DNA of 64,000 bases from Phoronis australis. Lineage: Eukaryota; Animalia; Phoronida. Where the stretch lies: assembly GCA_002633005.1 (NCBI GenBank), contig NMRA01000422.1:248001-312000 (forward strand), read 5' to 3'. The notes under the pieces are model-generated. The model saw nothing but the letters and a program-made list of their open reading frames with translations, had not been told where the DNA came from and did no database searches. Both the position numbers and the translations under genes were made by a program. Shown here one piece after another: positions 1-37,976 of this stretch (positions are counted from its first letter, which is position 1; each line of letters begins with the position of its first letter).

Positions 1-17
1 CGTAGAAATCGGAGAAG
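1..17 (+). CDS. 3' end of a CUB exon (..VEIGE-G), phase 1
   Basis: GTA GAA ATC GGA GAA G|gtaggt joins in frame to the exon at 2316, giving VEIGEGSNENRGLIGRYCG. Confidence 0.65.
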
Positions 18-36000: not shown

Positions 36001-37976
36001 CTTTAGAATGGGTTTGAATACTACGATACGACGAACTTACTAATTTTAAACGGTTAGGACTTACATCAGTTGTCTCCTAATCAAACTGTTTGCTGCTTGA
36101 AGTCGCCATTGTTTTGTTTACCTATAAGGTCAAACATCATATTTTCCATATAAGAGGAATGTGCTATGTCTATGTTAATTCATACCAAATGAGTAGACGT
36201 GCTTTCCCTTGTGGGAGACAAAATCGGTGAAATGACGAGCAGTAGACGGATCATTTTGTTTGAAATTTGAAGCTAAAAACAAGATGCTTTGACATCAACA
36301 GAAATTCAAATTTTTTACGAACAAACCGTAAAATACCTGGTGAACAGGTTGGATTCTGTTTCAGTGGCAGAGAACCATCTCCAGTAGTGCAATTTAGTCT
36401 ATTTTGTCGTTCCAGGGCTCTATAATGTCCATCATTATTCTATTTATATCTGCCATAAATTGTATTTATGTCTGACATAAGTCAGCCAGTGAGAATCGCC
36501 GATACGTTCATTGGTTCATTTGAAAGGAGGCCTTGCCGCCGGAGCACTTGCTAATGTTTCCAACCGATTCAATACCCTGTTAAGGTATTAGATGTTGACG
36601 CTTACATGTATATCAATGAAGAAACTTCTAACGCACTCGTTCACATCTCGCTTGAAATTTTGCAGAAAAACGGTATGGTCCGTAAGACGCGCCATGTTTG
36701 CGTAATAAGCTTGGAGAATGTAATGACGGTTCTCATTGGCTGACTTTTGTCAGACATAAATACGATTTATGTCAGATATAGATAAAATAATGGCGGACAT
36801 TAATCTTGTTTATATCTGACATATACAGGATTATGGCTGGCATTAATGAATTATGTACGGTATTAATCAAGAATTATGTCGGACACAAATTAGTTTACAT
36901 CAGACATTATTATTAATTCAGATTTATTTCAGATTGAATTCGAGTTTATGTCTGACATAATTCACAGCATCATATCTAAGAAATGTCTGGTTGGAATCAA
37001 ATAAAACATTCAGATGCACCGCTTGATGCACCGTGCTCGAAAATGCTGTCATGTATTGTTTGATTCACTTTTGCATGAGGGGCTATAAAAATGATATTTT
37101 ATGAAAAAATAGAGTAACGAAATGATTACTTAGAAAACAGTAACATTTTTTAAAGAAATACTACTGGGGTCCCTGCATATTCTACACACTCGTCAGAAAT
37201 GTTCACAGTATTGAAAATCAGCCCTAAGCACTTTAATCCCGTAAGGGAGTAGATTTTGATGGCTGGTGAAGGAGTATTCACCGACGTATTTTTATTCAGT
37301 GTTTTCACTTAAATCTGTTTGGGCTGATAGCTTTTGAAATGTCTGAATGTAAAATTATGAAAAGGATGATAACTGCATCAATAGGACGGTTATAGCTGTG
37401 GACATGCTTCTTTATGAAGTGAGCCGAGTCTTCACACATTTAGAAACCGCGGAAGAAGGGTTGTTTCGTGCTGTTTGAAAAGATGTATGCATATCGACCC
37501 GTTTCAAAACGGCGTGATTTATTATTATTATCTTTTTGTTATATTTATTACTTATGTGTTACAAACATTGTTTTTTCACTTCTTTGAAGAGTGGCAATTC
37601 GGCATGCTTTATGATTTACAACAGGTCTTTGAAGGGGCGTGAACGTTCCTCGGGCAACCAACCCGAATTCTCCAATGAATTTGGAAATGTTCCCCCACCC
37701 GCTTATGCCGACGGACCTTACAGTGAACGGAACGTGTGCACTTACAGCCAGGCTGGTGCACGTATTGTCTGCTACGACAATAAAGCATTTTCTGGAAAGC
37801 TAAATGATTATCCCAAGGGTGCCTATGTGGGCAGTGCACCTGTTTACGAAAGGACCGACCTGACTGAACAGAACAGTGAAAGGGGTGGAGCTGTTTATGA
37901 AACTCTTTCTCGTTACCAAGCTTCAGTTACTCCTCGACCTCATACTGGCAATGAATGGTATATTTCTCCCAACTAA
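1..37976 (+). CDS. Spliced gene, 5'-partial: cubilin-like multi-CUB + 5x TSP1 + TM + cytoplasmic tail receptor (14 exons in window)
   Basis: All exons are bounded by GT/AG, open, and phase-compatible in series, except the junction 23169 (phase 2) to 30797 (phase 1). CUB consensus (CGG..SPNYP..Y..C.W.I..F..C..DY..CG..F.TD..GF) occurs repeatedly. Confidence 0.8.
1256..1806. repeat. 44-bp minisatellite, 12 copies
   Basis: Unit TTACTAAGACTATCGATACAGATAGCGAACCTACATCGATCGAC repeated head to tail with small variants. Confidence 0.97.
2316..2477 (+). CDS. CUB exon (second half of CUB19-like domain)
   Basis: tgtag| GSNENRGLIGRYCGNN..LRVKFRTDSSLTYRGFQLSYNFS |gtgagt; 162 nt, phase 1-1. Confidence 0.9.
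2930..3051 (+). CDS. CUB exon (first half of CUB20-like domain); not in ORF track
   Basis: cgcag| QCGGVLSDESGIITSPNYPSAYPPNLACVWLIQAPEGHKIQ |gtgaag; phase 1-0. Confidence 0.92.
3240..4004 (+). mobile_element. Truncated, internally deleted non-LTR retrotransposon with (GAA)n tail
   Basis: 12-bp TSD GTATCCTCGGCA at 3228-3239 and 4005-4016; RT motif AAYVDLTKAFDKAW at ~3481; C-terminal IFRLRSGHCQL at ~3757. Confidence 0.85.
5271..5499 (+). CDS. CUB exon (second half of CUB20-like domain)
   Basis: ttgcag| VHTEDFNVQPSKDCQLDYLIVLNGDYASSPSIGRFCSN..EFRTDAVISAKGFKLRYMADNT-G |gtttgt; phase 0-1. Confidence 0.92.
7201..7388 (+). CDS. CUB exon (first half of CUB21-like domain)
   Basis: atgtag| GCGGFWHSSAGQLTSPNFPNHYPHNIECIWDI..GKCTYDYVE |gtaatt; phase 1-0. 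Confidence 0.92.
7849..8011 (+). CDS. CUB exon (second half of CUB21-like domain); not in ORF track
   Basis: gtttag| VSDYIYKTGKYTPILHACGNRLPPSQRSSNNRLRVKFRSDPWTNATGFSANWTT-G |gtacct; phase 0-1. Confidence 0.9.
10428..10540 (+). mobile_element. tRNA-derived SINE head
   Basis: A-box-like TGTAGCCTGGTTG and B-box GGTTCGAGTCCC; no complete cloverleaf. Confidence 0.55.
10957..11106 (+). CDS. CUB exon (first half of CUB22-like domain)
   Basis: ttatag| GCGFISTAQSGIFSSPGYPRAYDHNVRCEYLITGDPMELIIVEFKAFRLE-G |gtaagt; phase 1-1. Confidence 0.92.
11909..14251 (+). repeat. 5' LTR (interrupted at 12798-14240)
   Basis: Starts TGTCAGA; ends ..agtcaat[insert]attgtctgaca immediately before the PBS. Confidence 0.88.
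12798..14240. mobile_element. Non-autonomous TIR DNA transposon inserted in the 5' LTR (AT duplication, ISL2EU/PHIS-like)
   Basis: TIR AGCGGAGTTGCAAC / GTTGCAATTCCGCT; flanked by AT on both sides; the empty site is visible in the 3' LTR (agtcaatcgtctgaca). Confidence 0.8.
14254..14270 (+). promoter_or_regulatory. Primer-binding site, tRNA-Pro type
   Basis: TGGGGGCCAGTCCGGGA 2 nt after the LTR end; 2 mismatches from the tRNA-Pro PBS TGGGGGCTCGTCCGGGA. Confidence 0.85.
14381..15562 (+). pseudogene. gag: Gypsy gag: coiled coil, SCAN-related capsid, CCHC knuckle; in-frame TGA at 15014-15016
   Basis: PKLPRFDE..DAFLARFE..YDQLKVALLHRY..LLIREQFL..FLRERKPKT; CFNCHRKGHLTRDC; ORFs 14381 and 15107 are in the same frame. 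Confidence 0.92.
15610..17074 (+). pseudogene. pol: Gypsy pol remnant: aspartic protease followed directly by integrase; RT/RNase H absent
   Basis: RDTGC protease motif; HHCC zinc domain AHESIVGGHLG..FY*P..CRSCDICQR; rve core YATRYPEAVPL..SDCGTQFTS; WRGPY module after an internal deletion near 16724. Confidence 0.92.
17075..19683. mobile_element. Helentron/HINE-like non-autonomous repeat in ~2.2 tandem units of ~1.15-1.25 kb with (GAT/GAC)n tracts
   Basis: CACAGCCGCCAT(C/T)TTGG recurs at ~17125, ~18273 and ~19517; ACTTGGCGAAA/TTTCGCCAAGT subterminal motifs and hairpins; replaces RT and the first ~260 bp of the 3' LTR. Family assignment is by resemblance only. Confidence 0.7.
19684..20312 (+). 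repeat. 3' LTR (5'-truncated)
   Basis: Aligns to 12172 onward (13 differences in the first 129 bp by eye, fewer afterwards); ends TCTGACA. Confidence 0.92.
21006..21197 (+). CDS. CUB exon (second half of CUB22-like domain)
   Basis: tttcag| GYTNCLLGDSLTIYEGSSTSQPPIRRLCGS..LLVFSTDSSLSYSGFNATFRRT |gtaagt; phase 1-1. Confidence 0.92.
23037..23169 (+). CDS. CUB exon (first half of CUB23-like domain; partner exon not found)
   Basis: Long pyrimidine tract + acgcag| SCGGELTTPTGTLASSSHLPTYHRNFACRWTITVKQNRIVEIIL-R |gtatgt; phase 1-2. Confidence 0.85.
25426..25923. mobile_element. MITE with Harbinger-like TIRs
   Basis: AGGGCCTTTCATACTAAC vs reverse complement of the right end GGGCCCTTTCACATTGAC; internal GTTAACTTCGC repeats. 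Confidence 0.45.
29400..29812. repeat. Array of the palindromic motif AAAACTTAAGTTTT
   Basis: More than 15 degenerate copies of AACTTAAGTT at ~20-23 bp spacing. Confidence 0.9.
30797..30993 (+). CDS. CUB exon (first half of CUB24-like domain)
   Basis: ttatag| (G)VNQGCGGVLTSPSGTFGFPP..YGAGLTCTWFI..FNSLDIEYHSRCIHGYVQ |gtttgt; phase 1-0. Confidence 0.9.
31218..31380 (+). CDS. CUB exon (second half of CUB24-like domain); not in ORF track
   Basis: ttttag| VRNGNTSTAPLFDRYCGTTTPAPIIASSKLITVTLVSNAMVSRNLFNISYRSVD |gtaagc; phase 0-1. Confidence 0.9.
31665..33312. mobile_element. Non-autonomous Kolobok-type DNA transposon
   Basis: TTAA TSD at 31661-31664 and 33313-33316; TIR AGGAGCATGCCACCC / GGGTGGCATTCTCCT; related fragments at ~62716-62889. 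Confidence 0.85.
34064..34867 (+). CDS. Exon with five thrombospondin type-1 (TSP1) repeats
   Basis: ctgcag|..|gtaagt, 804 nt, phase 1-1; five WSxWxxWxxCSxSC..RxRxC repeats (e.g. VDGKWSTWNTWSKCSVSCGTGQAFRTRSC). Confidence 0.95.
35133..35235 (+). CDS. Transmembrane exon; not in ORF track
   Basis: atttag| GEANTGVATIVGITVGGIIVIVVIVGAAIIIYKR-M |gtaagt; hydrophobic stretch followed by a KR stop-transfer; phase 1-2. Confidence 0.92.
35332..36969. mobile_element. Foldback MITE with long inverted arms, interrupted at ~35510-36420
   Basis: 35332-35508 is the inverted counterpart of ~36805-36969, and 36422-36500 of ~36725-36803; TATGTCTGACATAA-like subrepeats. Confidence 0.7.
37625..37976 (+). CDS. 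Terminal exon, cytoplasmic tail (116 aa, 10 Tyr)
   Basis: caacag|G completes the AT|G codon; reads SLKGRERSSG..PPPAY..YDNKAF..VYETL..WYISPN then TAA. Confidence 0.85.

Follow-up and report, generated by a model that had tools for sequence, protein, structure and literature searches.

Does Phoronis australis possess a CUB array of the cubilin type that carries its own membrane anchor? The question is raised by a stretch of 64,000 nucleotides, hereafter the window, from the forward strand of contig NMRA01000422.1 (assembly GCA_002633005.1, positions 248,001 to 312,000). An initial annotation had proposed that CUB19 to CUB24 of a cubilin duplicate are joined there to five TSP1 repeats, a transmembrane (TM) helix and a cytoplasmic tail. 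Cubilin is described as an N-terminal region followed by 8 EGF and 27 ligand-binding CUB domains, for which amnionless provides two FXNPXF motifs and the part that spans the membrane (PMC8710305); the N-termini of three cubilin molecules are described as docking as a trimer on amnionless (PMC6283879). On balance we lean towards the reading that the window holds a cubilin-derived gene, likely a fast-evolving duplicate, in which CUB25-27 were swapped for the TSP1-TM-tail module, and that its product would be a self-anchored ligand-capture receptor.

The gene model consists of 13 plus-strand coding exons between 2316 and 37976: ten CUB exons, all ten above the Pfam CUB cut-off, and then the TSP1, TM and tail exons, so that six tandem CUBs precede five tandem TSP1 repeats. 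The longest intron is about 10 kb. The introns from 31380 (phase 1) to 34064, from 34867 (phase 1) to 35133 and from 35235 (phase 2) to 37625 all have GT..AG ends, and the open frame is unbroken across them up to the stop at 37976. Coordinates and phases of these three introns had been given correctly in the initial annotation, and all three were seen as junctions in RNA reads; its phase-compatible chain breaks further upstream, between 23169 and 30797. RNA was taken from four runs under one species label, of which X1 consists of contigs and X2, X3 and X4 of raw reads, with about 18-19% of each raw run used. The exons, and one interval in which an exon was expected, are as follows.

2316..2477, plus strand: exon, second half of CUB19; the gene extends upstream of the window (Pfam CUB; top profile position 19; AG/GT ends).
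2930..3051, plus strand: exon, first part of CUB20 (Pfam CUB; position profiles; splice ends).
5271..5499, plus strand: exon, second part of CUB20 (Pfam CUB; position profiles; best PDB match cubilin 3kq4).
7201..7388, plus strand: exon, first part of CUB21 (Pfam CUB; position profiles; splice ends).
7849..8011, plus strand: exon, second part of CUB21 (Pfam CUB; position profiles; splice ends).
10957..11106, plus strand: exon, first part of CUB22 (Pfam CUB; position profiles; splice ends).
21006..21197, plus strand: exon, second part of CUB22 (Pfam CUB; position profiles; splice ends).
23037..23169, plus strand: exon, first part of CUB23, phase 2 at its end (Pfam CUB; position profiles; splice ends).
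23170..30796, unstranded: interval without the expected CUB23 second-half exon, with a single N at 25233 (no CUB match above 9.1 bits).
30797..30993, plus strand: exon, CUB23/24 linker and first part of CUB24 (Pfam CUB; CUB24-specific linker; reads in X3 and X4).
31218..31380, plus strand: exon, second part of CUB24, donor of the fusion junction (junction reads on both sides).
34064..34867, plus strand: single phase 1-1 exon of 804 nucleotides with five TSP1 repeats (Pfam TSP_1, TSP1 profile; reads in all four runs).
35133..35235, plus strand: exon, predicted TM helix (hydropathy; junction reads).
37625..37976, plus strand: last coding exon, with cytoplasmic tail, 10 Tyr and stop (junction reads; open frame; no Pfam family).

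Read junctions were examined from 30797 downstream, those at 30993>31218 and 31380>34064 being counted at 98% likeness, and reads of the gene all lay on one strand. The junction 31380>34064, which connects CUB24 to TSP1 with GT..AG ends, was crossed by 0, 0 and 23 reads (15 starts) in X2, X3 and X4, respectively. The corresponding counts were 0, 3 and 9 for 30993>31218, 13, 10 and 33 for 34867>35133, and 3, 5 and 20 for 35235>37625; the TM and tail exons were thus spliced on in all three raw runs. Since the 23 junction reads match the depth of the CUB24 donor exon in X4 (19.9), this run carries the fusion as its main form. The transcript from CUB24 into TSP1-TM-tail, as predicted by the initial annotation, is well supported. 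In X4, a depth of 2.5 also persisted beyond the CUB24 donor, within the intron (31386-31516, plus strand; frame open to 31475), representing either unspliced transcripts or a minor product that is secreted. An X1 contig showed 28 mismatches to the window within some 460 bases of the last exon (37757-38213), whereas X2 to X4 agree with the window at the sites listed; this contig is either a divergent allele or a paralogue.

The position of each CUB domain was assigned by using two sets of position profiles, the first covering the 27 CUB positions of 25 full-length cubilins with normalised scores and the second built from 13 lophotrochozoan cubilins plus amphioxus. Scoring the domains one sequence at a time against five cubilins gave too much noise for this use, and raw scores of the first set, which favoured the generic CUB1-7, were dropped for the normalised scores and the second set. 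The best register by the normalised first set was 19 (score 106 vs 40). By the second set, CUB19, 20, 21, 22 and 23 were each top-ranked, for five of the six window domains, with CUB23 leading narrowly (14.2 vs 13.5). The sixth domain is preceded by the linker G-x-x-[QRK]-G-C-G, which is exclusive to the position before CUB24 (6/6 occurrences in the 25 cubilins; 10/10 among 378 domains). The proposed CUB19-24 register was therefore upheld, for CUB19-23 by position profiles and for CUB24 by the linker only. In the domain tree three window domains were placed with CUB20, CUB21 and CUB22. The three-domain register score of the window gene was 155 at CUB20; it stayed at or below 57 in all 15 TM-bearing multi-CUB proteins compared, and reached maxima of 100-245 in eight cubilin-like controls.

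The CUB19-23 part is 42-45% identical to bivalve and annelid cubilins (Crassostrea, Saccostrea, Owenia, Sinanodonta, Pecten and Mercenaria; residues about 2740-3190 in most), and nemertean and mollusc or annelid orthologues share 47-50% over an overlapping, longer region. For CUB20-21 the identity to nemertean or scallop cubilin was 48-55%, near the orthologue level. A FastTree tree of 31 sequences put the gene within lophotrochozoan cubilins, next to molluscs with weak support (0.74). The cubilin origin of the gene is well supported. CUB22-24 were more diverged than orthologues. Identity was 0.44-0.53 in the first five bins (0.51-0.62 among orthologues) and 0.31-0.44 in the last four, towards the junction (0.46-0.66 among orthologues); this fall and the long branch (1.04, FastTree) would fit release from cubilin constraint unless fast evolution is lineage-wide. 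Asp-containing motifs, which in CUB domains have a role in calcium-dependent binding, are kept in CUB20-22 and lost in CUB24. A CUB scan of 38000-64000, the 26 kb downstream in the window, detected no CUB exon, while the same scan recovered all ten known ones; the proposed loss of CUB25-27 thus holds as far as the window reaches, and exons may lie beyond it.

As for the module behind the array, the TSP1 exon matched Pfam TSP_1 with 140 bits and contains five repeats by the TSP1 profile, which retain the WxxW and CxxS/TC motifs. The TM exon encodes one hydrophobic segment (Kyte-Doolittle 19-residue mean 3.09), and neither this exon nor the tail exon matched a Pfam family. Ten Tyr are found among the 119 residues of the tail. 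A search with the tail brought up 136 candidates of 204-2000 residues, none of them a relative, which is weak evidence. The TSP1-exon search gave 872 matches; the 120 listed were TSP1-rich proteins of 33-44% identity, none of them with Pfam CUB (PF00431). A related feature follows the TSP1 exon at a distance of 11.6 kb on the same strand.

46450..46800, plus strand: decayed second copy of TSP1 repeats 4-5, with frameshift and stops (72% identity over 302 nucleotides to 34511-34808; Pfam TSP_1).

This copy points to a local duplication of the module.

Has such an architecture been seen elsewhere? With the CUB21 exon as query, 1.84 billion representatives were searched; of the 3530 matches, the best 150 were analysed. 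Among these best 150 of 3530 multi-CUB representatives, none had TSP1 after the CUB array, one had a single TSP1-like match, N-terminal, and 15 had a TM-like stretch after the last CUB, none of the 15 being in cubilin register. The TSP1 family was absent from all 88 long cubilins (2057-6547 residues, Drosophila to mammals) and a TM-like stretch from all 84 newly fetched ones, indicating that the cubilin architecture is very constant. The literature, searched by titles and abstract starts, yielded no cubilin fused to TSP1-TM; domain tables in genome-paper supplements could hold such an architecture. The initial annotation, which knew of no precedent, agrees with these counts.

The gene resembles cubilin (CUBN, of the cubam complex) in that its CUBs match by position, CUB19-24 in order, including the position-specific linker. 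It differs in that it ends, within the window, with 5xTSP1-TM-tail where cubilin ends at CUB27; in that it has a predicted TM helix and a cytoplasmic tail, and cubilin neither; and in that its anchor would be at the opposite, C-terminal end compared with cubam. Because two defining cubilin features fail, we do not count it as cubilin proper, although its ligand-binding part is like cubilin. In BAI (ADGRB) receptors, which are seven-helix adhesion G-protein-coupled receptors with a GAIN domain, 4-5 TSP1 repeats come after a CUB domain. The window gene, in contrast, shows one hydrophobic segment and no Pfam family in its TM and tail exons. The use of TSP-1 domains by BAI receptors is described together with LEV-10, SOL-1 and NETO, which are type 1 CUB membrane proteins; the latter carry 2-5 CUBs, and TSP1 is not mentioned for them in the accessible text (PMC9083331). 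Drosophila Cubilin2 (Cubn2) is likewise an invertebrate cubilin paralogue, but is described as acting together with Cubilin and Amnionless in one tripartite complex, and the accessible text mentions no anchor of its own (PMC8710305). Sea urchin EBR1 combines CUB and TSP1 in one protein, but is described with an ADAMTS-type N-terminus and alternating CUB-TSP1 (PMC13672419), whereas the window gene has a CUB array and then a TSP1 block. Patiria XP_038071601 and Glandiceps XP_077981827 ('cubilin-like') have many CUBs followed by a TM-like stretch, but are without TSP1 and not in cubilin register; judged from sequence, such long TM-bearing multi-CUB proteins are taken to be independent CUB expansions. 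In Nucella lapillus, four CUB-array gene models with neighbouring locus tags fall into one cluster, possibly tandem cubilin copies or a split model.

The fused protein would have type I topology. As its C-terminus carries the helix, the CUB array would be held from the end opposite to that in cubam, and self-anchoring would likely take the place of dependence on the partner protein amnionless. The TSP1 repeats may form a stalk lifting the array, and ligand would be captured by the CUB domains as in cubilin. Because CUB20-22 keep the Asp motifs that CUB24 lost, CUB24 and the TSP1 block may together serve as a spacer, with ligand capture further out. Uptake or turnover might proceed via the tail tyrosine motifs YDNKAF, PPAY and YETL. 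Such a gene likely came about by intergenic splicing, with a TSP1-TM-tail unit next to it as the target that can still be transcribed alone, and capture of this whole unit by one phase-1 splice would be the simplest form of this route. This fits because a single exon holds all five TSP1 repeats, X2 shows expression of the unit free of CUBs, and a decayed copy is present at 46450. Of the phase-1 exon shuffling proposed initially, the phase-1 splice stands; because the five TSP1 repeats share one exon and X2 lacks CUB reads, whole-unit capture fits at least as well as stepwise shuffling. An extended version, which we consider possible rather than probable, is a full-length cubilin derivative, possibly with the N-terminal trimerisation region, independent of amnionless and anchored at the opposite end, with a tissue-dependent choice between the fused and the stand-alone TSP1-TM-tail transcript. 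If true, the C-terminally anchored version would test the CUB array in either orientation and without amnionless, and a new receptor would have arisen by gene fusion with the captured unit still transcribed alone.

Several observations weigh against the self-anchored duplicate. The body of CUB24 is ambiguous: position 24 came second by the normalised profile, and the domain tree grouped the body with CUB15. The internalisation motif [FY]xNPx[FY] was not found in the tail, YDNKAF lacking the Pro, and the tail motifs were not above chance (shuffle P 0.09 for YDNKAF, 0.06 for PPAY and 0.79 for YETL). The endocytic receptor of the initial annotation is accordingly not established; as no tail motif is above chance, endocytosis would follow from ancestry and not from a motif. 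The fusion junction was present in one of the three raw runs. X2 was without CUB24 reads, whereas 5-10 were expected if TSP1 transcripts carried CUB24 (P 0.007 to 0.00005); X3 had CUB24 reads, yet no fusion-junction reads (P about 0.07); and X1 contigs spanned TSP1, TM and tail only, with no CUB.

To the same side belongs the gap in CUB23. The exon ending at 23169 is in phase 2 and that at 30797 in phase 1, so that a direct join is impossible, and the CUB23 second-half exon was not found anywhere in the window. Eight X4 reads continue upstream of 30797 into another exon, visible as a loose read end, for which no window match was found at up to 3 mismatches (best 19/30). Because the translation of this read-derived end runs into the linker, in the same register as the CUB23/24 boundary of scallop, mussel and annelid cubilins, the exon exists in RNA. 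It was either lost in assembly (single N at 25233) or deleted in this allele; if truly deleted, this allele is frameshifted. Continuity from 23169 to 30797 is thus suggested by the cubilin register, not by reads. Positions 28419-28496 weakly resemble a CUB domain (8.7 bits, E about 0.2) but were ruled out as the missing exon, as the frame required is provided by no splice acceptor.

The module is probably also transcribed in a short form. Sense-strand coverage of 33744..34063, directly upstream of the TSP1 exon, was observed in X2 and X3 and was absent in X4 (depth at 33875-34005 of 4.1, 3.6 and 0, respectively), from which an internal start just upstream of this exon is likely; read starts upstream of 34064 showed no pile-up. 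The first in-frame ATG, at 34087, is preceded by several out-of-frame ATGs and lies inside TSP1 repeat 1, so that the short transcript would have no signal peptide. The initial annotation had considered TSP1/TM exons that have their own first exon and never join 31380: they are joined in X4, and X2 shows the unit without CUB reads.

A serious rival, although on the whole an unlikely one, is that the same fusion protein is an adhesion, matrix or immune-recognition receptor, signalling via its tyrosine-rich tail and not endocytic. The tail with 10 Tyr in 119 residues and no canonical endocytic motif, the motifs kept in the TSP1 repeats, and the absence from CUB24 of the Asp residues kept in CUB20-22 all suit this role, and CUB- and TSP1-bearing membrane proteins are described as functioning in synapse organisation (PMC9083331). 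Against it stand CUB20-21, still near orthologue-level identity to cubilin, and YDNKAF, which, compared with the amnionless-type FXNPXF (PMC8710305), departs at the Pro and has Tyr in place of the first Phe. We regard as improbable a canonical cubilin locus with CUB25-27 past the window, in which certain tissues would take a nested TSP1-TM-tail gene as their alternative last module. The stretch 38000-64000 is free of CUB exons, whereas introns of the model reach about 10 kb at most; in X4 the exon depth is matched by the number of junction reads; and CUB22-24 are diverged beyond orthologues. Support for such a locus comes from the X2 RNA of the module without CUB reads, the sense-strand reads that X2 and X3 have ahead of 34064, the X3 reads of CUB24 without the junction, and the place of the sequence among lophotrochozoan cubilins. 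Still more doubtful is that this is the species' only cubilin, with a replaced C-terminus and perhaps no further need of amnionless: the 42-45% shared with bivalve and annelid cubilins comes near the 47-50% between orthologues, but TSP1 was found in 0/88 and a TM-like stretch in 0/84 long cubilins, and duplicates are known, as Drosophila Cubn2 (PMC8710305) and a single Nucella contig bearing several CUB-array genes. The least probable is a read-through fusion that is decaying or polymorphic and has no selected function, as the missing CUB23 exon, the decayed TSP1 copy, the fusion in one run and the ATG of the short form inside TSP1 repeat 1 are opposed by the frame, open over 13 exons with their GT..AG ends, by the presence of the missing exon in RNA in exact cubilin register, and by the junction as the main form in X4.

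The intron at the fusion junction and other parts of the window carry mobile elements.

31660..33317, unstranded: intronic DNA transposon remnant with 20-nucleotide terminal inverted repeats (many 90-95% reads, loose ends at both termini).

Reads joining 33309 back to 31664 within this remnant (10 in X2 and 15 in X3) may come from circles or tandem copies elsewhere. Between the CUB22 exons lies a broken retrotransposon remnant (14366-17260, plus strand) with gag-, protease- and integrase-like pieces recognised by eye, flanked by 626-nucleotide direct repeats of 94% identity (12172-12797 and 19684-20303). Fragments resembling the reverse transcriptase or endonuclease of non-long-terminal-repeat retrotransposons were recognised by eye at 41945-42797 and 48482-50541 (plus strand). 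On the minus strand, 55178-57961 is a single-exon frame of 928 codons with many leucine-rich repeats (LRR), an immunoglobulin (Ig)-like domain and a hydrophobic C-terminal end, corresponding to an LRR-Ig protein.

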